Of a stretch of DNA of 64,000 nt, positions 5,753 through 35,926 are shown in pieces; the stretch's first letter is position 1, and every line of letters starts with the position of its first letter. Origin of the DNA: Terriglobia bacterium (GTDB lineage Bacteria > Acidobacteriota > Terriglobia > Bryobacterales > UBA6623); contig CAWGNS010000009.1 in the NCBI GenBank assembly GCA_963824095.1, positions 348,272 to 412,271 on the forward strand, given 5' to 3'. Both the position numbers and the translations under genes were made by a program. The notes beneath the pieces were generated by a model. That model worked only from the letters and a program-made list of their open reading frames with translations, was not told the origin of the DNA and searched no databases.

Positions 5753-6835
5753 ATGAAACCGCGAGCGGCTGCCTGCCTGGCCGTTTTGCTCTGGCCGCTG
5801 CTCGTGCCGGCCCAGGAAAGCGTCGCCGGCTTCGAGATGCCGCTCACCCTCAGCGGCGGCGCGTTCGTCACCGAGCGCACCGAGCAGCCGCCCCGCTCGG
5901 CCTCGAGCTTCACCGCGGGCACGCGCCTGGTCGCCTACCCGACCTTGCGCCTCAACGAGCACTGGTTTTTCTCGGGCGCCGTGCAGTTCCACTCGCGCCC
6001 TTACTATTTTCAGGAACTGGGGACGCAAGGCTACGGCGCCGAGGTCGACGTGCTGCAGGCCTACGCCGGATACGAGCGTTTCTGGGGACGCAACGTCGTC
6101 ACGATTCGCGCCGGGCAGCTCACCTCGGCCTTCGGATCGTTCCTGCTGCGCTACGACGACGCCGTCAATCCGCTGATCGATCTGCCGCTTTCCTACGGCT
6201 ACTACACTTCGCCGGTGACGAACCTGGGACTGGTGGGCGCGCAGGCCGACGTTACCCTCAACCACCTCGACCTGCGGGCGCAGTTCACCAACAGCTCGCC
6301 CGCCAATCGCCGCAGCATCTTCGACCCCGACCAATACGGCACCTGGACCGGCGGCGTCGGCTACACGATTGTGCAAGGCCTGCGCGTCGGCGTCTCCGCG
6401 TATCGAGGCCCCTACCTCGATCGCGAATTCCCCTTCTATTTCCCCGGCGAGCGCCCGCCGAAAGAACTGCCGGCCAGCGGCTACGGCCTCGAAGGCGAAA
6501 TGGCGCGCGGCCACTGGAACTTTCACGCCGAGGCGCACCGCTTTCAGAGCGCCTACAAAGCGATTCCGACCGTCAACCGTTTCTTCGCCTACGGAGAAGC
6601 CCAATACGCCTTCCGCCCGCGCTGGTATGCCGCGGTGCGCGTCAACCACGGCCACTCGAACGTATCGCGCGACCAGAACGTCTACGAATTCGCCATCGGC
6701 TACCGCCCCAACCGCTTTCAACTCGTTAAAGTCGGCTATGAACTCGTCAAAGGCTCGCCGCGCGATGGGGCCCCCGGAGACGTCTTCGCGATTCAACTGG
6801 TGACGACCCTGAGGCCGATCTCCAAAGCCTGGTGA
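5753..6835 (+). CDS. putative outer-membrane beta-barrel protein
   Basis: ORF 5705..6835(+), start at ATG 5753 (MKPRAAACLAVLLWPLLVPAQE signal peptide). Alternating beta-strand pattern rich in Y/G/R, terminal aromatic (..ISKAW). 17 nt after the HD-GYP stop. Confidence 0.55.
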   Translation: MKPRAAACLAVLLWPLLVPAQESVAGFEMPLTLSGGAFVTERTEQPPRSASSFTAGTRLVAYPTLRLNEHWFFSGAVQFHSRPYYFQELGTQGYGAEVDVLQAYAGYERFWGRNVVTIRAGQLTSAFGSFLLRYDDAVNPLIDLPLSYGYYTSPVTNLGLVGAQADVTLNHLDLRAQFTNSSPANRRSIFDPDQYGTWTGGVGYTIVQGLRVGVSAYRGPYLDREFPFYFPGERPPKELPASGYGLEGEMARGHWNFHAEAHRFQSAYKAIPTVNRFFAYGEAQYAFRPRWYAAVRVNHGHSNVSRDQNVYEFAIGYRPNRFQLVKVGYELVKGSPRDGAPGDVFAIQLVTTLRPISKAW

Positions 6836-6862
6836 ATTGCCCAAAACCGACAGGGTGCTCGA

Positions 6863-6944
6863 GGGGAACAGTCACCGCGTTTCGCACCTGAGGTTTTCAG
6901 AGGCTTACAGGATTCGCGGGGTGCGAAGCACGGTGACTGTCCCC
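6863..6944. repeat. repeat family C: two inverted copies forming a long hairpin
   Basis: ggggaacagtcaccgcgtttcgcacc (6863-6888) against ggtgcgaagcacggtgactgtcccc (6920-6944). Unit GGGGACAGTCACCGTGYTTCGCRCCCCGCGAATCCTG also at 47202 and 17431. Confidence 0.8.
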
Positions 6945-6966
6945 CTCAGGCAAAGCCGCGAACTCA

Positions 6967-6998
6967 ACAAACAGAGCCGCAGGCGTAAGCCCGCGGGC
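6967..6998 (+). repeat. repeat family D copy
   Basis: aacaaacagagccgcaggcgtaagcccgcgggc. Inverted partner at 7130-7166. Related copies at 33682, 38690, 49492, 51843, 53181, 53260. Confidence 0.75.
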
Positions 6999-7129
6999 CG
7001 AGTCGCCACAGAAGCCAGGGGCGAAGCGCCGCGAACTTGTTTCCGCCAACATTGCCAACGCGCCAGAAACCGGCATGGGGTTCTGCTGCGCCCCCCACAG
7101 CCGCAGGAGTTCGTAACCGCCCGGGGGCT

Positions 7130-7166
7130 TCCGCCCGCGGCTCTGTCTCGTTGTTTGTGGCGACGG
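7130..7166 (-). repeat. repeat family D copy (inverted relative to 6967)
   Basis: ccgggggcttccgcccgcggctctgtctcgttgtttg is the reverse complement of the caaacaacgagacagagccgcgggcggaagccc type. Confidence 0.75.
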
Positions 7167-7203
7167 TGCGGCAGGCCGGCGACGGTGCGGCAGGCCCCGG
7201 GCC

Positions 7204-8514
7204 TCAAGGCGATCCTACGAATTGCCCCGCCTGACCGCGAGCCGCGATGCTCCGTAGATGATCAACCCCAGTACGGCGGCGATCCCGGCGTCGCGAGCCT
7301 GCCCGGCGGTGGCGTTCGACGCCAGCCAGGCGATCAGCAGCAGCGAGACGACGCACACCGCGGTTCCCGCCGGCGTCCGGAATCGCGCCGGCGACGCCCC
7401 GGGCGTGCGGCGCAACACCGGCAAGGCCAGGCAGGTCGTGGCATAGGCCACCAGCCGCGCCAAGCACACTCACCGTTGCGGCGTAGGCGAAGGTTCCCGT
7501 CAGCGTGAGCCCCAGCATGATCGCCGCCGTCGCAACGATCGCGTTGTGCGGCGTGTGAAAGCGGCGATGCGTGGCGGCGACGAAGCGCGGCAGTTCGCGC
7601 CGCTCGGCCATCGCGAACGGCAGCCGCGGCGACACGAGCATCGCTACGTTAAGATTGCCGAAAATCGAAATCAGGGCCCCGGCGGAAAGAATCGTTGCGC
7701 CCAAGGGCCCCAGGAAGCGTCCGGCGGCGTCGGTCAGCGGCCGGCTCGAAGTGGCCAGTTCGGGCAGCGTGCCGACCGCGACGAGTTGGATCAGCAGGTA
7801 GAACAAGCACACCACCGCCAGGCCCAGCAGCAGCGCGCGCGGCAGATCGTGCATCGGGTCGCGCTGCTCGCCGCTGGGGATCGCCGCCATCTCGAAACCC
7901 GTGAAAGCGTACACCAGCAACAGCACGGAGACCGAAAAATCACCGTATCCGGGAAGCGCGCCAAGAGCCAGCCGCGCCGGGTCGATAAAGAAGCAACCCG
8001 CGGCGATGAACAGCGTCAGCGGGACGAGTTTCGCCGCCGTCATCACGTTGCTGAGCACCGCCGCGTCGCGTACGCCCACCACATTGACGACCGTCAGCAC
8101 GACGATGACGACCGTGATGATCGTCACTCGTAATACCCCTGTTTCCGCCGCCGGAACAAAGAAAGCGAGGTAGGAGACCAGCAGGTTGCAGTTGGCCGCA
8201 AAGCCAGTCACCCGCGCGATCCAGGTCATCCAGCCGACCTCGAAACCCGCCAGCGGACCGAACGCCGCCCCGGCATACAAATACGGGCCGCCGGTATCGC
8301 CAAAGCGGCTGCTTACCTCGGCGAAGCACAGCACGATCATCACGACCGCGAGCCCGCAGACCACAAATGCAATCAGGCTATAGGAGCCGATCAGCGCGAA
8401 TACCTTGGACGGCAAACCGAAGATGCCGGCGCCGATGACGGCATTGATGGTCAGCGCGATCAGGTCCCATCTGCGGATCGCGCGCAGCAGACCTTCGCGG
8501 GTTGGTTGTTCCAT
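7204..8514 (-). pseudogene. APC-family amino acid permease with apparent frameshift near 7462-7470
   Basis: ORF 7204..8565(-), start ATG 8514 (MEQPTREGLLRAIRRWDLIALTINAVIGAGIFGLP). After ...TFAYAATVS this frame becomes Arg/Gly-rich noise. The permease-like C-terminus (ARLVAYATTCLALPVLRR...) continues in ORF 7215..7469(-), offset by 1 nt. Confidence 0.7.
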
Positions 8515-27392: not shown

Positions 27393-28982
27393 CTAGCGGT
27401 CGGCCGCGAAGGTCATCATCTCGTACAGCGCGCGCCCCTGCGAGCCGCTGGGGGTCTCGATCTCGAGCAGCGTCGCCAGGCTCGGCGCCAGGTCGTTGAG
27501 CACCACCGAACGCGCGTAAGTGCCGGGCCGGATGCCGGGGCCCAGAAAGATCAGCGGGATGTGGGTGTCGTAGGAATAGGGAGTCCCGTGGGTCGTCCCT
27601 GAGGCGCCGCGAATCCAGTAGGGGTCGAGTAGAATCTCCAGGTCGCCTGAACGCCGCGCGTTGAAGCTGTGCGCCACGCGCTGGCTCACGGTGTCGCTCG
27701 GCGCCTGGCCAAACAGCAACTGCGTGCGCGTGAACACCCGCGCCACGTGCGGCAGGTTTTCGATCGACTGCGCCGCCACACGCTCCACCTCGCCCATCGC
27801 CAGGCCCTTTTCGGCGACCAGCTTGCGGTCGAAATAGGGCGAGGTGCCGGCCGTGGCCTGGACCCAATTTCCGGCGCCGAATCGCGACGTCAGAGCCTCT
27901 TGCATGGTGTCGAACAGCAGCGTGTTCGAAAAGCGCCCGCCCGGCATGTGGTCCTGCTCGAGCCGCTCGGGCACCGGCACCACGCCGTGGTCGGCCGTCA
28001 GCACGACCAGCACGTGCTGCATGCCGATGGCGCTGTCGAGGAAGGCGAACAGCTTGCCCAGAATGCGGTCGCTCTGCACGCTGATGTCGTGCGCCTGCGG
28101 CGAGTCGGGCCCGTATTTGTGGCCCACCGCGTCGTTCGAGGAAAAGCTCACGGTCAGCACGTCGGTGGCGTCGCGCTGGCCCAGCTTTTCCTGGCGTACG
28201 GCGTCTTCGGCGAAACGCTCCAGCAGTTCATTGCCATAGGTGCTCGTGTAAACGGCTTCGTAGAGTTCTGGCCCCGGCGCCGCCGCAAACTTGAGCATGT
28301 TTGCTGCGCCGGCCCCGAACTTCCACTCCACGCCGGCATACTTGTCGGCCTGGCGCTCGCCGTTGAAGGCCGCCACCCAGGCCGGCAGCGTGGGGAAGTA
28401 GTAGGTGCTGCTGACGAACGCCCCGGTTTTCAAATCCAGCCAGTAGGCGCCGTCGGCCATGTGCCCGGCCGGCAAGATCGCGCTGCGGTCCTTGAACGAA
28501 ACCCCGATGACCTTCGAATCGGCACGGCCCGAGCGCTTCAGCTCGTCACCCACCGTGCTCACCAGCAAGCGCCGCGGCGACGAGCCTGTGCCCGGCGAGC
28601 CGCCCAGCAGCTGCACCGACTTATCCGAAACGCTGGTCACCTGCTCGCCCTCTTCGCGGTCGTACCAGTCGTTGCCGACGATGCCGCTGATCTTGGGCGT
28701 CGCCCCCGACAACATCGTCGAGTGGCCCACCGCAGTTACGGTCGGGTAGTGGTCGAGGTTCGCGTTGACGAAATTCGCCCCGGTGCGCAACAGGCGGTCG
28801 AATCCATGGCTGTATTCGGAGCGGAAACGCGTCAGGTAGTCATAGCGGAACTGGTCGATCGCCACCAGCAGCACCAGGCGCACGTCGCCGCCGGGCGCCT
28901 CTTGGGCGCGTAGCAACGAAGGCGAGCCGATCAGCGCGCACGAGACGAGCAGCAGAACTGCCTTGTGGATGAGTTGCTTCAT
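27393..28982 (-). CDS. alkaline phosphatase family protein (nucleotide pyrophosphatase/phosphodiesterase, PafA-like)
   Basis: ORF 27393..29024(-), start ATG 28982 (MKQLIHKAVLLLVSCAL signal). VAIDQFRYDY, PTVTAVGHSTMLSG (Thr nucleophile context), LTADHG. Confidence 0.8.
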   Translation of the reverse strand: MKQLIHKAVLLLVSCALIGSPSLLRAQEAPGGDVRLVLLVAIDQFRYDYLTRFRSEYSHGFDRLLRTGANFVNANLDHYPTVTAVGHSTMLSGATPKISGIVGNDWYDREEGEQVTSVSDKSVQLLGGSPGTGSSPRRLLVSTVGDELKRSGRADSKVIGVSFKDRSAILPAGHMADGAYWLDLKTGAFVSSTYYFPTLPAWVAAFNGERQADKYAGVEWKFGAGAANMLKFAAAPGPELYEAVYTSTYGNELLERFAEDAVRQEKLGQRDATDVLTVSFSSNDAVGHKYGPDSPQAHDISVQSDRILGKLFAFLDSAIGMQHVLVVLTADHGVVPVPERLEQDHMPGGRFSNTLLFDTMQEALTSRFGAGNWVQATAGTSPYFDRKLVAEKGLAMGEVERVAAQSIENLPHVARVFTRTQLLFGQAPSDTVSQRVAHSFNARRSGDLEILLDPYWIRGASGTTHGTPYSYDTHIPLIFLGPGIRPGTYARSVVLNDLAPSLATLLEIETPSGSQGRALYEMMTFAADR

Positions 28983-29668
28983 GGGGTAGGGAATCCTCGC
29001 AGGTTGGAGCAGGTTGCAGGCCAAGCCAAACTTCCCAGTGTAACCCGAAGCGACCCGAGGCTACGGACGCGCTACCCAGCGGTGCCCGGATTGGTGACCT
29101 GGAGAACCCCGCCGCGAGGCGCATCCGAGCCGCATTCGCGCAGGTACGAGGCTCCTTTGCCTTTCGAGCATTGCCAGTAAGTCCCTCCAGCTTTGCCGCC
29201 TCCAACTGTGAGCCCAGTTGTCTCCGGCCCAGCGACCTTGCGTGCCGGCGCCGGGAACGGTTCGGGCGTGCGGGGGCGCATACCCGTCGCAACAACAGGA
29301 GAACATTTTCGTGAGACAAATCGCTCGTGTGTTGAGCAGGGCGATTGCGGCCGGACAATTGACGTACTTCGAACAGGACAAAGGTAGCAAATCCTGCGGG
29401 AGTTTCTGCGCTCGCTCTAGCGCAAGGTGCGGGCGACCTGCCCAAAAAAACGAACGCCGGGACGCGGCCGCCGTTGGTGCTCCCCCCAGGGTATAGCTCC
29501 ACCTGCGTTGCGTCCCGGCGCCGCAACGGGACTCGGACGATCCAGCCCGGAATTCGCAGACTCGATGGGATCCGCGGCAGGATCGTCCGCGCCGCCGTTG
29601 ATGCCGCACGCCGAAGCGGGAGGGGTGTCCGTCCCACCCCCTGGCCGCCAAGCCGGGTGCGGCCAACC

Positions 29669-29986
29669 TCAAGCGCCCGAGACTTCGATGTTGTTCGTCA
29701 CACGCACGACTCCATCGACGTTCTGGGCCAGTTCGCCGGCCCGTTGCTTCACGTCCGCGGTTTGCACCTTGCCGGCCAGGGTCACCACCCCGTCCGTGGT
29801 GTCGACTTCAATGTTGGTGACCGTCGATAGCTGCACGTCGGTCGCCAGCTTCGTCTTCACGGCCGCGGTGATCGCGGCGTCGTCGGCCTGCTGCCCCGCC
29901 GTCTGCGTCGAACTGCAGGCGATGGCGAGGACCAGCGCAAATGCCACCGATAACAGAAACCCTGTGCGGGCGATATGTTTGCTCAT
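29669..29986 (-). CDS. BON domain lipoprotein (OsmY-like)
   Basis: AAGGAGGAAG upstream. Lipobox-like LAIACS. Single BON domain ITAAVKTKLATDVQLSTVTNIEVDTTDGVVTLAGKV...RAGELAQNVDGVVRVTNNIEV. Confidence 0.8.
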   Translation of the reverse strand: MSKHIARTGFLLSVAFALVLAIACSSTQTAGQQADDAAITAAVKTKLATDVQLSTVTNIEVDTTDGVVTLAGKVQTADVKQRAGELAQNVDGVVRVTNNIEVSGA

Positions 29987-30124
29987 GGACTTCCTCCTTG
30001 CACCATGTCTGTCGAATAGTCGGAATGCGGGGCTCGATGCCTTCCGGCCCCGCGGATGGATCAGGTCGGACCCGGCTTGGCCGGAATCCGTGAATGCGTC
30101 CGCATGGCGGCAGAACGCATCGCT

Positions 30125-30280
30125 TCAAACTCTGCCGAGCAGCACCAGCAGCAGCAGCACCAGCACCACCACCCCCAGCCCGCCGCTGGGGTAGTACCCC
30201 CAGGAGGCGCTGTACGGCCATGCCGGAAGTGCGCCGATCAGCAACAGAACCAACAACACGATGACAACTGTGCCCAACAT
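30125..30280 (-). CDS. DUF3309-family small membrane protein (51 aa; below the ORF-track cutoff)
   Basis: Hand translation gives MLGTVVIVLLVLLLIGALPAWPYSASWGYYPSGGLGVVVLVLLLLVLLGRV*. GAGGTG 7 nt upstream of ATG 30280. The WPYS..WGYYPSGGLG core is the DUF3309 hallmark as I recall it. Confidence 0.7.
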   Translation of the reverse strand: MLGTVVIVLLVLLLIGALPAWPYSASWGYYPSGGLGVVVLVLLLLVLLGRV

Positions 30281-30329
30281 TTGTTTCACCTCTCAAGCTT
30301 CACCAGACATTCGCGATCCCTTGGGGCGG

Positions 30330-31373
30330 TTAGGAGCTTGCCCCACGTTTGAGAACCCTGCCGGCGAGTTTCTCGTCCCCGCCGCGGATTGCCAGGTCTT
30401 CGATCGAAATCACACCCACGAACCGGCGGTTGCCGTCGAGCACCAGCAGCCGGCGGCACGGTTTACGCTCCATGATCTCGGCCGCCTGCAGCACGCTCTG
30501 GCTGTCGAGGCAATAGGCGTATTCGGCGGTCATCGCCGAACGCACCGTGGTCTGTGAGGGGTTGGCGCCTTGCGCGGTGGCCCGCACCGTGATGTCGCGG
30601 TCGGTGATCAGCCCCACGACGTCGTCGCCCGAGCGCACCGGCAGGAAACCGACGCCGCGCGCTTCCATCTGCCGCGAAGCTTCGGTCAACGACGCCTCGG
30701 CGTCGATGGTCTCGACCTCGCGGCTCATGGCGTCGCGCACCAGCACCACGCGGACGTGCGCCGGCACGTCGCTCACGCGCACCCTCGCGTGGCCGTCGGC
30801 CGCCGGGGCGCTGGTTTGCGCCCGCGTTAGCGGCTTGGTGCTATTCGCGAAATCCGCGTGCTCTTCCTGCGCCGTGGAGATGTCTTCGGCGCCGCTCTGC
30901 TCTAGAATCTGCCGCGCGTTGCTGGCCCACTGCGAGCTGTCACAATGCACCGACAGGAGAATGCCGCCCTTGCGGATGCGGCCTTCGTAGCGTTTGGCTT
31001 CGTACTCGGGAATGCCCATGCCGACCAGGCCGCCGACCACTCCGCCGACGGTGCCTCCCGCTCCGACCCCAGCCAACAGGCCCAGAATCGGCCCCGCCGC
31101 GACGAACAGCCCCAGCCCGGGAATCGACAGCGTGCCGATCCCCACCAGCCAGCCGAGCACGCCGCCCACAACGGCGCCCGAGCTCGCCCCGGCCGTTACG
31201 CCCTCGGGCGCTTTGGTGCTCTTCTCGTGCGCCAGATCTTTCGAGCCGGCGTTCTCGGGAAACAGCACCGATATGTCGGTATTGCGAAAACCGTGCGCGC
31301 GCAGGGCTTCCACCCCTTCCTCGGCGCCCGCCCGGCTCGCATAGATGCCAAAAACCGCAATGTTCTTTGTCAT
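30330..31373 (-). CDS. fusion protein: YflT/general-stress-like N-domain + glycine-zipper membrane segment + C-terminal CBS pair
   Basis: AAGGAGG upstream. MTKNIAVFGIYASRAGAEEGVEALRAHGF (YflT-like), GAVVGGVLGWLVGIG...GVGAGGTVGGVVGGLVGMG, IPEYEAKRYEGRIRKGGILLSVH, then two CBS repeats (VRDAMSREVETID...GFLPV; VRSAMTAEYAYC...LLVLD..RFVGVISIEDL). Confidence 0.75.
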   Translation of the reverse strand: MTKNIAVFGIYASRAGAEEGVEALRAHGFRNTDISVLFPENAGSKDLAHEKSTKAPEGVTAGASSGAVVGGVLGWLVGIGTLSIPGLGLFVAAGPILGLLAGVGAGGTVGGVVGGLVGMGIPEYEAKRYEGRIRKGGILLSVHCDSSQWASNARQILEQSGAEDISTAQEEHADFANSTKPLTRAQTSAPAADGHARVRVSDVPAHVRVVLVRDAMSREVETIDAEASLTEASRQMEARGVGFLPVRSGDDVVGLITDRDITVRATAQGANPSQTTVRSAMTAEYAYCLDSQSVLQAAEIMERKPCRRLLVLDGNRRFVGVISIEDLAIRGGDEKLAGRVLKRGASS

Positions 31374-31400
31374 AGCAAAACCTCCTTGCTCTTGCCGCCC

Positions 31401-32204
31401 TCAAAAGCCTTGATCCGAACTGCCGGCCTGCACCGTCAGTTCGTTGTGCACTTTTCCGGCGCCCGCCGCCGCCACGGCTTTGGCCTCGATATCCTGCCGT
31501 TCCGCTTCGCTGCGCACAACGCCCTTGAGCGTCACCCGCCCGTCGCGGCTGATGATCTTCACGTTGTGCGCGTAAGTCGAAAGCGTTTTATCCGCGACCA
31601 CCGCCCGCCGGATCGTCCGTGTCAACTGACGGTCTGAGGCGGTATTGCCCTGGTCATCGGCGGTGAGTCCCTGCTTCGATGCGGTCGTGCTTTTCGCTTC
31701 CTTCGTAACACCGAGAAACACGCTGGCCATCGGATCGCACGACGGTGCAATCTGTTCCACCTTCGTCGCATGGAACACCCGGCCATCGCCTTCCTTGTCG
31801 CCATAGACGCGAACCATGCGGTCTATGTAGTTCTCCAGATCGGGCGAGCCGACGACGGTAATGCGGTCGCCGCCGCCGTCTTCCTTCTCGGTAAGAATGT
31901 AGGGATCGCTCTCGTCGCCGCGCGTCAGGCATCCACGCTTCTCCATGCCTAACGTTTCCTTTAGCTTCTCGCCGGTCTTTTCCAGCGCCTTCCCGACTTC
32001 CTGCTTGGTTTCTTCTAAGGACTTCGATATGGACTCATCCTTATCCCGCTTATCCTGGGTGGCGCCCGCCGTTGATTGAGTGTCGCTGTTTTCCACCTGC
32101 CCGCTGGCGGCTTCTTGTGCCGTCGCGACGGTTCTTGTTTGGGGGTAAGACACTCCCCCCGCAGTCAACGTAACGGCGATGGCAAGAACGATGTGCCGTG
32201 TCAT
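31401..32204 (-). CDS. secreted protein with C-terminal BON domain
   Basis: GGGAGG upstream. Signal peptide MTRHIVLAIAVTLTAGG. Acidic/Lys-rich region. C-terminal BON (IRRAVVADKTLSTYAHNVKIISRDGRVTLKGVVRSEAERQDIEAKA). Confidence 0.7.
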   Translation of the reverse strand: MTRHIVLAIAVTLTAGGVSYPQTRTVATAQEAASGQVENSDTQSTAGATQDKRDKDESISKSLEETKQEVGKALEKTGEKLKETLGMEKRGCLTRGDESDPYILTEKEDGGGDRITVVGSPDLENYIDRMVRVYGDKEGDGRVFHATKVEQIAPSCDPMASVFLGVTKEAKSTTASKQGLTADDQGNTASDRQLTRTIRRAVVADKTLSTYAHNVKIISRDGRVTLKGVVRSEAERQDIEAKAVAAAGAGKVHNELTVQAGSSDQGF

Positions 32205-32657
32205 GATTGCCTCCCTGCCACGGCCCGCGGCCGGCGAAAGCGTCCGGTCCGGTTGGCCGTGGGGTTACGCCCCGTAGATCCCAGACTGCGTTCTTGCGTT
32301 ACTGGGTTCGTTTCCTGCGACGGGCGTCCCCCCGCGCCCCCGCGTGCTGACTGCCCATATCCCCGCTCGGAGCGGCAGGCGCCAGCCCGCGCGGTTTCGT
32401 TGGCCGGATTGCAGTGCCTGAATTTGCACGGTGAGGTACGGCGAAGTAGGGTCAAGCCGCACTTGCGTGAGCGGACGCCCGCGGCTCCAGGGTTGGTGAT
32501 TTTTCGTTGAGTAAATGTCCCCGGGAAATACGCCGCAATTATTGGACAACAGAGTACGAAACCTCACCCGAAAACCATGGCGGTTCGCAGGCCGCGGACA
32601 CAGCCTCGAGCGGTCGTGAGTCTACAGAGCAACTAGCGCTCACCAAAGGAGGTAGAG

Positions 32658-33458
32658 ATGCATCGATTTACAGTTCATTTTTTGGTCGGTTGCCTAGCCA
32701 CCGTTGGTCTGGCGGCCATGCTGCAAGCGGATGCCTGGAATAAAAAGACCGAGCTTACGGTCCACGAAAAAGTGGAAGTTCCCGGCGCGGTCCTGTCTCC
32801 TGGCAAATACGTTGTCAAACTCGTGAATTCCGAATCCAACCGCCACATCGTGCAATTTACGAATGAGGCGGAAAATCAGGTGGTTTCCACGGTGTTGGCA
32901 ATCCCGAACCAGCGCATGGAACCTACTGGCGACAGCGAGTTCACGTTTTACGAATCGCGCGTCGCGGGCACACCGGTGTTGCGCGCCTGGTTCTATCCGG
33001 GTGACACCTTCGGGCAACAGTTCGCTTATCCGAAGGATAAGGCGATCGAACTGGCAAGGGCCTCCGGCGAGGACGTGCCTTCGCTCGACGGTGACGATCT
33101 TTCGTCGGCGCATGTGAGCACGGTTTCGCCTAATGAATCGGAACCGGCCACGCCGCCGCAAGAAAGCGCGGTGACACCGGCCCCGCCGCTGGGGCGAACG
33201 CACACGCAGCCCGCGGCCCCCAAGCCCGAGCCGGCGCCCGACACCACGACATTGGCGCAAGCGCAGCCTCAGGAACAGCCTCCGGCTCGCACGCCGGCAG
33301 CCGCCGCACCGGCTCCTCAGACCACGCAACAGCCTGAGGCCGGCGAACAGCTTCCTTCGACCGCCAGCCCGGCTCCGCTGCTGGGACTGCTGGGCCTGCT
33401 GTCGCTGGCTGGAGCTTTGGGTCTGAACAGGGTGGCCAAGCAACGCGACTCGCGTTAG
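32658..33458 (+). CDS. secreted protein with C-terminal sortase-type sorting signal (LPSTAS + hydrophobic + basic tail)
   Basis: AAAGGAGG 6 nt upstream. Signal peptide ..AAMLQA/DA. ~130-aa unknown domain. ~90-aa P/A/Q-rich linker. LPSTAS at 33351-33368 followed by PAPLLGLLGLLSLAGALGL and NRVAKQRDSR. Confidence 0.7.
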   Translation: MHRFTVHFLVGCLATVGLAAMLQADAWNKKTELTVHEKVEVPGAVLSPGKYVVKLVNSESNRHIVQFTNEAENQVVSTVLAIPNQRMEPTGDSEFTFYESRVAGTPVLRAWFYPGDTFGQQFAYPKDKAIELARASGEDVPSLDGDDLSSAHVSTVSPNESEPATPPQESAVTPAPPLGRTHTQPAAPKPEPAPDTTTLAQAQPQEQPPARTPAAAAPAPQTTQQPEAGEQLPSTASPAPLLGLLGLLSLAGALGLNRVAKQRDSR

Positions 33459-33815: not shown

Positions 33816-34529
33816 ATGGTGCACCTAAGAATCCAAGGCCATAGCGAAGTCCGCCTGCTGCGAGGCGCCATCACCCTGCTGCTGGCCGCCGGGCTGGTTT
33901 GCCTGGCCCTATTCTTCTGGTACACATTCGAGGCCCAATACTCCCAGGCCTTGCTCCGCCACGAATTCGATGCGCAACAGAACAACTCCGTATCAACCCC
34001 ATCGCCCAATCCGGCGCCGCCACCGCCCGCTAAACATCCGATGCTCGTGGGCCGCCTCGAAATCCCCAGGCTCGGGGTCGAAGTCATGGTCGTCAACGGA
34101 GCCGATGCTGCCAGCTTGCGGGAAGGCGCCGGCTGGCTGCCCAACACCGCCTGGCCCGGCGACGGCAACGCCGCCATCGCCGCGCACCGCGACACGTTCT
34201 TTCGCCCGCTGCGCCACATCCGGCAAGGCGACACGGTGCTGCTGACCACGCGCGACGCCCGCTACCGCTTCCGCGTCGAGTGGACCGCCGTGGTCGACCC
34301 CGACGACACCGCGATCTTGCGGCCCACCGACGAGCCCGCGCTCACGCTCATCACCTGCTATCCGTTCTACTACGTCGGCAGCGCTCCGCAACGCTTCATC
34401 GTCCGCGCCGCCCGGCAACAACCGCTCGATGGCCCCGCCGCGAAATTGTTCCAGGGCGAGCAGCCTCCCGCCGCGTGTTCGTTCGGACCCCACGGCGGCC
34501 CCGGAAACCTGAGCGGAGCCGCCGATTGA
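33816..34529 (+). CDS. sortase family transpeptidase (membrane-anchored)
   Basis: N-terminal TM anchor (AITLLLAAGLVCLALFFWY). LEIPRLGVEVMVVNG. His context GNAAIAAHRDTFF. Cys context ALTLITCYPFYY. Arg context QRFIVRA. Confidence 0.8.
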   Translation: MVHLRIQGHSEVRLLRGAITLLLAAGLVCLALFFWYTFEAQYSQALLRHEFDAQQNNSVSTPSPNPAPPPPAKHPMLVGRLEIPRLGVEVMVVNGADAASLREGAGWLPNTAWPGDGNAAIAAHRDTFFRPLRHIRQGDTVLLTTRDARYRFRVEWTAVVDPDDTAILRPTDEPALTLITCYPFYYVGSAPQRFIVRAARQQPLDGPAAKLFQGEQPPAACSFGPHGGPGNLSGAAD

Positions 34530-34732: not shown

Positions 34733-35926
34733 GTGCCGTCTCTACTCAGCGACCTCGGCCCCCTCGAAATCCTCGACATCGCGCTCGTGGCCCTGTTCGC
34801 CTACGTGCTCATCATTTCGATGAAACGTGCCCGGGCCGGCCTCACGCTGGTCGGCATTCTCATGCTGGGCGGCGTCTATCTGGCGGCGCGCGCGATCGGC
34901 CTACAGCTCACCGCCTGGATTCTGCAAGGTTTTTTCGCCGCCATCCTGATCATGCTGGTCGTTCTGTTTCAGCGCGACCTGCGGCAGTTGTTCGAGCGCA
35001 TCGCCGTCTGGACGCTGCGCCGCAACACCGGCGTGTCCACTTCCGACGAGGCCGTGCTCTGCCTGGTCGATGCCCTGCGGACTCTGGCGCGCCGCCGCCA
35101 CGGCGCCCTGCTGGTCCTGCCCGGCAAAGATCCCCTCGACCGCCACATCGAGGGCGGCGTCGAACTGGAGGGCCGCGTCAGCTCGCCGCTGCTGATGAGC
35201 CTGTTCGACCCCGACTCGGTGGGCCACGACGGCGCGGTGATCGTCGACGGCGACACGGTGACGCGCTTCTCGGTGCATCTGCCGCTCTCGCGCGATTTCG
35301 ATCAACTCGGCCAACTCGGCACGCGCCACGCCGCCGCGCTCGGCCTCGCCGAACTCTCCGACGCCTTGTGCCTGGTGGTATCCGAAGAGCGCGGCGAAAT
35401 CTCGGTGGCGCGCAATCACCTGCTGCGCCTGCTGCCGACCCGCGAGGCGCTCGAAGACGAGATCGAGCAATTCGTCCAGACCAAGCGAAGGCCCCCCAAC
35501 GAGGGCCGCTCGCTGATTTCGTTTCTCACGACCAACTGGCTCGAAAAAGCCACCGCCGTGGGCCTGGCGCTGGGACTGTGGGTGGTGTTCGTCTCGGGAG
35601 GGCAGGGCGTCCGCCGCGAGCGTGAAGCCCCGGTGCTGGTCGACAACGTGCCCCCCGCCTTCGAAATCAGCGCCGTGACGCCCAAGCAAGTCCAAGTAAC
35701 CCTTTCGGGGCCGCGCCGCGAATTCTATACCCTCGCCGATACCGACCTCGAAGTTCGCGTCGACGGCTTCCTGGCCGGCTTGGGCCGCAGGACCTTCCGC
35801 ATCGACCCCCAGGACGTCCGCCACCCCGAGGGCCTCACCGTGCTGAGCGTAAGCCCGGCGACCGTCACGTTAACCGTCACCCGAATATCCCCAAGCCAAC
35901 CAACGCCGCCCGCGGCAAGCCCCTGA
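34733..35926 (+). CDS. cdaA: diadenylate cyclase CdaA fused to a C-terminal TM + YbbR(CdaR)-like domain
   Basis: GTG start. Three N-terminal TM helices. DAC domain HGALLVLPG...GHDGAVIV (DGA)...LGTRHAAALGLAELSDALCLVVSEERGEISVA (RHR position reads RHA). Then TM ATAVGLALGLWVVFV and a YbbR-like beta domain (VLVDNVPPAFEISAVTPKQVQVTLSGPRRE...). Confidence 0.8.
   Translation: MPSLLSDLGPLEILDIALVALFAYVLIISMKRARAGLTLVGILMLGGVYLAARAIGLQLTAWILQGFFAAILIMLVVLFQRDLRQLFERIAVWTLRRNTGVSTSDEAVLCLVDALRTLARRRHGALLVLPGKDPLDRHIEGGVELEGRVSSPLLMSLFDPDSVGHDGAVIVDGDTVTRFSVHLPLSRDFDQLGQLGTRHAAALGLAELSDALCLVVSEERGEISVARNHLLRLLPTREALEDEIEQFVQTKRRPPNEGRSLISFLTTNWLEKATAVGLALGLWVVFVSGGQGVRREREAPVLVDNVPPAFEISAVTPKQVQVTLSGPRREFYTLADTDLEVRVDGFLAGLGRRTFRIDPQDVRHPEGLTVLSVSPATVTLTVTRISPSQPTPPAASP

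Follow-up and report, generated by a model that had tools for sequence, protein, structure and literature searches.

We analysed a 64,000-nucleotide stretch of DNA from Terriglobia bacterium (contig CAWGNS010000009.1, positions 348,272 to 412,271 of the forward strand; the whole stretch is called the window below). Its minus strand holds four consecutive open reading frames (ORFs) at 32204-31401, 31373-30330, 30280-30125 and 29986-29669, with products of 267, 347, 51 and 105 aa, which we number genes 1 to 4. The cluster probably represents a conserved envelope or general-stress module, in which a putatively oligomerising glycine-zipper membrane protein (gene 2) is combined with BON-domain proteins (genes 1 and 4) and a DUF3309 protein (gene 3), and in which a CBS pair fused to the membrane protein would add adenine-nucleotide control. 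What is new here is this CBS domain fusion, together with an extra periplasmic domain in the BON partner, on a module that is widespread, common in soil Acidobacteria and experimentally neglected. The locus is a domain-fusion variant of known families and not a new kind of system. The features of the cluster are as follows.

31401..32204, minus strand: gene 1, predicted exported BON-domain protein, 267 aa (ORF and Pfam BON)
31737..31931, minus strand: gene 1, Cys-bracketed putative periplasmic insert, residues 92-156 (Cys spacing in orthologues)
31428..31637, minus strand: gene 1, BON domain, residues 190-259 (Pfam PF04972)
30330..31373, minus strand: gene 2, predicted inner-membrane fusion protein, 347 aa, ActD/YflT-like glycine-zipper module plus C-terminal CBS pair (Pfam, AlphaFold, alignment)
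31254..31373, minus strand: gene 2, N-terminal βαβ half, residues 1-40 (AlphaFold)
31008..31202, minus strand: gene 2, glycine-zipper membrane hairpin, residues 58-122 (sequence, motif count)
30864..31007, minus strand: gene 2, C-terminal helix and βαβ half, residues 123-170 (AlphaFold; Pfam ActD 113-166)
30741..30863, minus strand: gene 2, variable linker, residues 171-211 (confidence of the model, alignment)
30384..30740, minus strand: gene 2, CBS pair (Bateman module), residues 212-330 (two Pfam CBS matches)
30125..30280, minus strand: gene 3, DUF3309 protein, 51 aa (Pfam PF11752)
29669..29986, minus strand: gene 4, single-BON lipoprotein, 105 aa, lipobox LAIAC with Cys24 (Pfam BON)

The gaps between consecutive genes are 27, 49 and 138 nt, and a GGAGG-type Shine-Dalgarno (SD) site lies 6-8 nt 5' of all four starts (GGGAGGcaatcATG, AAGGAGGttttgctATG, GAGAGGTGaaacaaATG and AAGGAGGaagtccATG in gene order); for the 51-aa ORF, an alternative GTG start at 30289 falls within its SD. 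The domain content, the SD sites and the conserved export signals are far beyond chance. These observations agree with an earlier note on this DNA, which was made from the letters alone and had listed the same four ORFs, now confirmed at their exact positions and strand, with strong SD sites, gaps of 27-138 nt, BON domains in the 267-aa and 105-aa proteins (both pass the Pfam cut-off), a lipoprotein label for the latter, and a 51-codon DUF3309 gene, which turned out to match the full Pfam model and to have orthologues in the same slot of related loci. The genes have the usual features of an operon, namely the same strand, short gaps, no intrinsic terminator called inside the cluster, and an order that is kept in the relatives P0007, P0008 and P0006; they are most likely transcribed as one unit. 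Recent horizontal acquisition was considered and rejected because the GC content is uniform (0.59-0.69) across 24-38 kb of the window.

The fusion protein and its partners

The N-terminal module of gene 2 (the N-module) was modelled in AlphaFold runs with 27 and 53 homologues. Its N-terminal half is predicted to contain β1 (residues 5-11), α1 (14-26) and β2 (34-37/39), with a predicted local distance difference test score (pLDDT) of 76-90, and is followed by a conserved HEKxTKAPEG segment. Its C-terminal half is predicted to contain a helix (123-133), β3 (138-144), a further α-helix (147-159) and β4 (163-169), and residues 123-170 hold the invariant motifs PEYEAKRYEGR and SVHxD. Between the two halves lies a hairpin with glycine at every fourth residue (58-62-66-70-74-78 and 94-98-102-106-110-114-118) on both sides of an IPGLG turn. 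Nearly all of these zipper glycines are invariant in 27 fusions and 53 family members, and there is no D, E, K, R or H in residues 58-122. The column identity is 0.77 for the N-terminal half and 0.77-0.86 for the N-module within the fusions; across phyla the N-module is still about 70% identical, with more than 60 invariant positions.

From these models, the N-module is predicted to have the layout of ActD, with two βαβ halves forming a cytoplasmic four-stranded sheet and split by a two-helix hairpin. In ActD, two transmembrane (TM) helices lie between terminal βαβ motifs that form such a sheet, and the second TM helix carries a highly conserved Glu122 (PMC5928083). Gene 2 resembles ActD (PF11821 / DUF3341; 6btm_D, 8k9e_D) in its size and in the modelled order of βαβ, TM hairpin and βαβ with both termini cytoplasmic, whereas it has neither the membrane Glu nor accompanying act genes, and differs further in its glycine-zipper helices, its BON partner and its appended CBS pair. 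The Pfam gathering cut-offs relevant here are 27 bits for BON, 26.2 for YflT, 25.7 for ActD and 22.3 for DUF3309. The ActD model gives 24.5 bits, below its cut-off, and aligns with the C-terminal part only (residues 113-166); relatives score 17-24 bits, also under the cut-off, and the model is aligned over its full length in P0140 and L172. ActD chains are ranked second and third for the N-module in Foldseek, at non-significant values (E 0.4-0.6, TM-score 0.37). No act-like gene (actABCDEF cluster) was found in the window or in any examined related locus. We therefore ruled out that gene 2 is a subunit of alternative complex III (ACIII), since the ActD score is below the cut-off, act genes are not nearby, and Glu122 has no counterpart.

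The ActD (DUF3341) architecture was absent from the earlier note, which described a fusion of YflT, glycine zipper and CBS pair. The zipper and the CBS pair of that description hold well, while the YflT part stands just at the Pfam threshold: the match is borderline (26.3 bits) and covers model positions 4-69 of 99. Some relatives score higher on the same model (L171 37.4, P0262 41.6 and P0129 111 bits) and others lower (L172 24.1, P0207/P0140 21.7-22.8 bits). In common with YflT / general stress protein 17M (PF11181, SigB regulon of Bacillus), gene 2 has an N-terminal α/β half and then a Gly-rich segment. YflT itself is reported to be heat- and SigB-induced.

The linker that follows is 28-100 aa long in homologues (median 38), has a column identity of 0.49, and is probably disordered, judging from the model, in which residues 171-199 have pLDDT below 50. 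The CBS pair behind it is modelled with pLDDT above 90 and matches Pfam PF00571 twice (total 80 bits, 1.6e-22). Its two motifs read G254-L-I-T257-D-R-D260 and G320-V-I-S323-I-E-D326. Among 27 sequences, G254, T257, G320 and S323 are invariant and D260 and D326 are at least 90% conserved. The pattern G-h-h-T/S-x-x-D in each CBS motif is the ribose-phosphate-binding signature, and since both copies are retained, the pair likely binds an adenosine-containing ligand. Foldseek places it at TM-scores of 0.82-0.90 and root-mean-square deviations of 1.4-2.3 Å from the stand-alone CBS pairs ST2348, 9z6r, MJ0922 and HRP1/Rv2626c, and the fold matches include AMP-, ADP- and ATP-bound AcuB and CBSX2, and CorB with Mg-ATP (7m1t). 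With HRP1/Rv2626c (1xkf, 1y5h), 9z6r and ST2348 it shares the Bateman fold, 28-35% identity and a TDRD-type motif; these proteins are soluble and free-standing, whereas the pair in gene 2 is tethered to a membrane protein. A cytoplasmic-side CBS pair serving as nucleotide-sensing regulator, as predicted for gene 2, is also known from MgtE, CNNM/CorB, OpuA/OpuC and DarB/CbpB. Unlike in MgtE, CNNM/CorB and OpuA/OpuC, the linker of gene 2 is long and flexible, and its membrane domain is not homologous to theirs.

Gene 1 is built from a signal peptide, a charged low-complexity stretch, a domain of about 62 aa between Cys92 and Cys156, and a C-terminal BON domain (46.5 bits, E 4.5e-12). The hydrophobic N-terminal signal peptide is kept in all orthologues compared. 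Paired Cys residues 61-64 positions apart occur in the six fusion loci checked (the window, L081, L084, L085, L087 and L088), whereas the pair is absent from the BON partners of the stand-alone modules in L171 and L172, both of which were checked, and phmmer matches to the N-terminal part of gene 1 are confined to fusion loci. As the Cys domain was seen only in BON partners of CBS-fused proteins, a periplasmic addition and the cytoplasmic CBS addition appear to co-occur in one clade. The Cys-bracketed domain shows sub-threshold similarity to DUF5818 (E 0.066).

Gene 4 carries one BON domain (65.2 bits, 6.4e-18), and the lipobox Cys is found in all small BON orthologues compared (LAIAC / VGIGC / MPGC), including those of L087 and L172. 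A PDB sequence search gave OsmY (8rjx) as the closest solved structure for gene 1, and the closest for gene 4 are OsmY 8rjx (1.3e-14) and YraP/DolP 7a2d (8.3e-12). The BON fold and the predicted periplasmic export are shared with OsmY and DolP/YraP of E. coli, and gene 4 is a lipoprotein like DolP; on the other hand, genes 1 and 4 have one BON domain each and not two, and gene 1 has the additional Cys-bracketed domain. OsmY is recognised by two BON domains and a full-length match, and DolP/YraP as a lipoprotein with two BON domains; the NCBIfam equivalog cut-offs are 174 bits for OsmY (NF007858), 184 for DolP/YraP (NF008247) and 125 for CbpB/DarB (NF041630). Gene 1 reaches 22.8 bits for OsmY and 15 bits for DolP, and gene 4 reaches 55.2 and 42.3 bits, respectively, so that neither is an orthologue of OsmY or DolP.

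In gene 3, residues 2-51 align to positions 1-50 of the 50-position DUF3309 model (72.7 bits, 2.6e-20), with two hydrophobic helices flanking a conserved loop, LPxWPYSxxWGYYPSGGLG. Orthologues occupy the same slot in seven other fusion loci, and stand beside stand-alone modules in Acidobacteriota and in Geobacter/Geomonas.

Distribution of the fusion and gene order in relatives

We searched 5.8 billion protein clusters and, exhaustively with a profile, 1.84 billion representatives that had been clustered at 50% identity. In the former, CBS-carrying full-length relatives amount to about 30 clusters at the 90% identity level, 50-77% identical to gene 2. In the latter, the complete architecture is represented by one cluster (P0007), a few fragments and the distant P0262, which is 31% identical and likewise runs from YflT module through glycine zipper to CBS pair, but whose gene has unrelated neighbours with no BON among them. 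The N-module was found in none of 80 generic CBS-pair loci from metagenomes. From the cluster counts and this null result, the fusion appears rare and essentially restricted to one lineage, probably Bryobacteraceae going by the names of the closest records, and the statement of the earlier note that the CBS fusion is unusual is borne out.

The stand-alone family is far larger. It contains thousands of proteins of about 190-280 aa that match only residues ~3-187 of gene 2 with 60-72% identity, and makes up the majority of the 150 top-ranking representatives of the exhaustive search. Named members are annotated as 'DUF3341 domain-containing protein' or 'ActD protein / heat induced stress protein YflT'. 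We fetched 80 genome loci, all of the stand-alone form, mostly from Acidobacteriota (Bryobacterales, Terriglobales, Acidiferrales) with some from Geobacter/Geomonas. In 36 of them the module is directly preceded by a BON gene on its own strand, and DUF3309 is found within 1.2 kb in 10, upstream of the module in Geobacter/Geomonas.

Twelve fusion contexts, including the window, were compared. Ten of them have BON upstream, eight have DUF3309 downstream and four have the small BON, in the following orders.

Window, P0007, P0008, P0006: BON, fusion, DUF3309, small BON
P0005, P0004, P0017, P0024: BON, fusion, DUF3309
P0028 and the frameshifted L089: BON, fusion
P0021, P0022: fusion, then a YggU-like gene

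The flanking genes differ among most of these contexts, and the intergenic gaps stay within -1 to 135 nt. This recurrence points to a travelling core of BON, membrane protein and DUF3309, to which the trailing BON lipoprotein is accessory. As to the four-gene order and the co-regulated stress module put forward in the earlier note, the BON/fusion/DUF3309 core is thus recurrent and the small BON is not, being limited to four contexts; the conserved same-strand cassette with differing flanks and its stress-type neighbours speak for the module, while a shared promoter motif was not found.

The stress-type neighbours that recur are CsbD, PRC-barrel, DUF892, Csp, MgtC, GlsB/YmgE and extracytoplasmic function (ECF) sigma factors. 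Plasmids of cultured bacteria give independent support: pACPOL4 of Acidisarcina polymorpha encodes BON, a 'general stress protein' (the RefSeq name of the module there) and a GlsB/YeaQ/YmgE stress membrane protein, and on a Methylomagnum ishizawai plasmid PRC-barrel, BON and the module precede a 104-aa BON lipoprotein, with CsbD and further small stress proteins after it. A 49-aa ORF in the latter cluster was tried as a DUF3309 candidate and is not DUF3309. Single-chain fusions also exist, namely P0140 (N-module and two BON domains) and P0159 (BON and N-module), and from their sequences they constitute Rosetta-stone evidence of a putative functional link between BON and the N-module.

Several further observations concern the relatives. 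In L089, two copies of a repeat of about 120 nt with multiple stops occupy 6100-7400, where the window has DUF3309 and the small BON, and possibly represent a small mobile or repeat element that took the place of both; many genes of this assembly are broken by frameshifts. P0032, at first sight a CBS-less sister of gene 2, is a fusion that a frameshift has split, and comes from the error-prone assembly of a close relative. A MEDS-HisKA_3-HATPase sensor histidine kinase, absent from the window, adjoins the stand-alone N-module in 28 of 87 related loci (e.g. L065, 8344-9777, minus strand), mostly convergent just downstream, and could be a regulator of the stand-alone form. The N-module appears to be repeated within one chain in P0129 (754 aa), P0181 (602 aa) and P0245 (521 aa), which have four, two and one matched YflT stretches, respectively, and each also several stretches matching the fusion profile. 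P0121, P0122, P0130, P0131 and others, 1100-3200 aa long, have an unusual architecture with 6-10 separate CBS-like stretches, a high fusion-profile score and no annotation. Finally, a BON gene is located within a few kb of six of 80 unrelated stand-alone CBS-pair genes (L097, where it is adjacent, L107, L109, L111, L113 and L118), which hints that the co-occurrence of CBS pair and BON is wider than the fusion clade.

Function of the cluster and alternative explanations

Gene structure, domain content, the conserved gene order, the rarity of the fusion and the predicted fold are results of the analysis, from which we infer co-transcription, stress induction, oligomerisation, ligand binding and function for the cluster along the following lines. 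The two BON proteins would be exported to the periplasm, gene 1 as a soluble or N-terminally anchored protein with its extra domain of disulfide type and gene 4 as a lipoprotein, while gene 2 and the DUF3309 protein would be seated in the inner membrane, where the glycine zippers would drive homo-oligomerisation of gene 2. Together with the lipid-binding BON proteins and DUF3309, the module would stabilise or remodel the envelope under osmotic, desiccation or starvation stress. The CBS pair would bind an adenine nucleotide, dimerise on its flexible tether, and link how the membrane module assembles or acts to the energy or osmotic state of the cell.

The assignment to stress is based on the family associations (YflT, OsmY, DolP and the annotation), on the recurring stress neighbours, and on analogy with SlyB/YfgH and Hyp730/Rv1234. 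SlyB and YfgH, two lipoproteins of the glycine-zipper 2TM type, function in envelope stress (bioRxiv 10.64898/2026.06.08.730324, 10.64898/2025.12.22.696046). They have a two-helix glycine-zipper membrane hairpin as gene 2 does, and the likeness is one of analogy only, as they are outer-membrane lipoproteins of Proteobacteria with no ActD-like domain. Hyp730 of Micrococcus luteus and Rv1234 of M. tuberculosis are double-pass membrane proteins whose predicted topology is ActD-like and which have a globular domain in the cytoplasm; they are up-regulated in dormancy and starvation and non-essential in growth (PMC7856521). They are likened to the N-module by description only; they are Trp-rich and not of the glycine-zipper type, and neither a CBS pair nor a BON partner is reported for them.

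A number of results weigh against this proposal. The membrane hairpin is poorly modelled (pLDDT below 50 in both AlphaFold runs), and Foldseek of the N-module against the PDB returned nothing significant (best E 0.2). Contact of a periplasmic BON protein with gene 2 is possible only via the 5-residue periplasmic turn or via lipids, and in the Rosetta-stone proteins BON is on the cytoplasmic side, so that the link between BON and the N-module need not be direct periplasmic contact. The closest relative, L089 (its CdaA, see below, is 85% identical to that of the window), lacks DUF3309 and the small BON. Two fusion relatives are entirely without BON, and in these (L083 7123-7419 and L086 7270-7539) the next gene downstream is PF02594 (YggU/DUF167-like), replacing DUF3309. 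For regulation, a sigma-70 consensus scan found no cluster promoter, two-block and k-mer enrichment over 41 upstream regions found no shared motif, and no block was conserved when the five closest upstream regions were aligned. The 138-nt gap before gene 4 could host gene 4's own promoter; it folds no better than shuffled sequences (z -1.06), and hence no attenuator or terminator is claimed there. The long variable linker also makes it less likely that the CBS pair and the membrane domain are tightly coupled allosterically. Given its length, variability and low model confidence, a tethered sensor or an oligomerisation/dimerisation module fits better than a rigid gate, and the "ligand-gated behaviour" of gene 2 suggested in the earlier note is speculation.

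Taken literally, the ligand gating of the earlier note would mean a nucleotide-gated channel, in which the zipper helices of several subunits would line an inner-membrane pore and the CBS ligand would open or close it, as in MgtE, CNNM/CorB and ClC. Long i+4 glycine zippers on both helices, a motif reportedly typical of homo-oligomeric channel helices, would suit such a pore, several membrane transporters are CBS-regulated (CorB with Mg-ATP being among the fold matches), and the ribose-phosphate motifs of the pair are conserved. We consider a channel improbable, as the linker is disordered, poorly conserved and 28-100 aa long compared with the rigid connections of CBS-gated transporters, the thousands of stand-alone family members work without a CBS pair, and the membrane segment has no polar or charged residue. 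The same CBS pair could instead be a receptor for cyclic di-AMP (c-di-AMP) made by the adjacent CdaA, tying the envelope module to osmotic and potassium homeostasis. CdaA is encoded divergently 2.5 kb upstream of the cluster; the arrangement is repeated at the P0017 locus (a 57% identical fusion with other intervening genes) and in L089, and within 6 kb CdaA is found in none of the 80 stand-alone loci. The CBS-only proteins DarB/CbpB are established c-di-AMP receptors, c-di-AMP governs osmolyte homeostasis (PMC9293649, PMC7900238), and BON/OsmY proteins are tied to osmotic stress. However, CdaA is near the fusion in just 3 of the 12 contexts, two of which are the close relatives with 85% identical CdaA, and the same neighbourhoods have also inherited a sortase together with its substrate, so that residual synteny or shared ancestry is the simpler explanation. 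Moreover, the CBS pair scores 14.7 bits on the CbpB/DarB model, no c-di-AMP-binding CBS structure is among its PDB sequence or fold matches, and Rfam found no c-di-AMP riboswitch in the window. We regard a c-di-AMP receptor as unlikely, to about the same degree as the channel.

Less probable still is that gene 2 serves as an accessory subunit docking onto a PsrC/NrfD-type respiratory or quinone membrane complex, with the CBS pair reporting energy charge. This reading draws on the ActD-like architecture with its marginal Pfam and Foldseek matches, on the energy-saving respiratory role that the Hyp730 authors propose (PMC7856521), and on CBS pairs being classic AMP/ATP sensors, with nucleotide-bound AcuB and CBSX2 among the fold matches. 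Against it, neither the window nor any locus that we examined has an ACIII or other respiratory gene within ~6 kb to either side, no residue in 58-122 corresponds to Glu122 of ActD and the ActD score is under the Pfam cut-off, and the consistent partner of the N-module is BON and not a redox protein. That the four genes are independent neighbours and the 'fusion' an assembly or gene-calling error is effectively refuted. In its favour, the scans identified neither a promoter nor a terminator, the clade includes frameshift-ridden assemblies (L089) and the gene content varies among relatives; but 27 full-length fusions from independent NCBI, ENA, JGI and Logan assemblies all have an in-frame linker, P0262 has the same layout at 31% identity, the gene order recurs with unrelated flanks, and the error in L089 is of the opposite kind, a frameshift that splits a true fusion.

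Beyond the envelope-stress module that we favour, the stand-alone ActD-like proteins with BON and DUF3309 might form an unrecognised, widespread inner-membrane stress machine (an oligomeric pore or a lipid-organising ring comparable to SlyB of the outer membrane), with the CBS clade showing its control by directly bound adenine nucleotides, possibly c-di-AMP from the neighbouring CdaA; we hold this to be a long shot. The stand-alone ActD-like protein is among the most conserved small membrane proteins of soil Acidobacteria and has a fixed BON partner, and a full-text literature search returned nothing on 'DUF3341' and passing mentions only of 'DUF3309'. The locus is valuable mainly because it opens a way to the function of the ActD-like / BON / DUF3309 module: the ligand of the CBS pair would reveal which cellular signal controls the whole family, and the CBS-fused variant lets one ask if nucleotide signalling reaches envelope-stress proteins of the BON/OsmY type.

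Non-coding stretches and neighbouring genes

The remaining features around the cluster are listed here.

32205..32657, strand not assigned: divergent intergenic region of 453 nt, expected from its position to hold the cluster promoter
29575..29668, minus strand: GC-rich stem-loops just 3' of the last stop, without a U-tract (folding)
32658-33458 and 33816-34529, plus strand: sortase (Pfam 1.8e-31) and a 266-aa secreted protein without Pfam match
34733-35926, plus strand: CdaA of 397 aa with CdaA_N, DAC and YbbR in one chain (Pfam domains)

The stem-loops at 29575..29668 have a minimum free energy of -61.7 kcal/mol (z = -1.94 against shuffles) and were not called in the terminator scan; folding makes them a weak candidate for a non-canonical transcript end. 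Rfam gave nothing at gathering thresholds in the whole window, and at E ≤ 1 only a chance miRNA match in 28900-32750. About 650 nt (~29025-29668) separate the stop codon of the small BON gene from the start of a phosphodiesterase gene and hold no credible ORF, Rfam match or recognisable element; this is an unusually long stretch for this gene-dense window.

The neighbours of the cluster in the window encode the phosphodiesterase, a methyl-accepting chemotaxis protein (MCP), the sortase, CdaA and an esterase. In CdaA, the usual partner YbbR (CdaR-like) is fused C-terminally; a CdaA gene is also close to the cluster in L081 and L089. The C-terminus of the 266-aa secreted protein (…LPSTASPAPLLGLLGLLSLAGALGLNRVAKQRDSR) resembles an LPxTA sorting signal with a membrane helix and a basic tail behind it. 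This protein and the sortase also adjoin the cluster in L089 and, accompanied by a VWA protein, in L087 and L173; from the sequences, the pair appears to be a dedicated sortase system of a didermic Acidobacterium.

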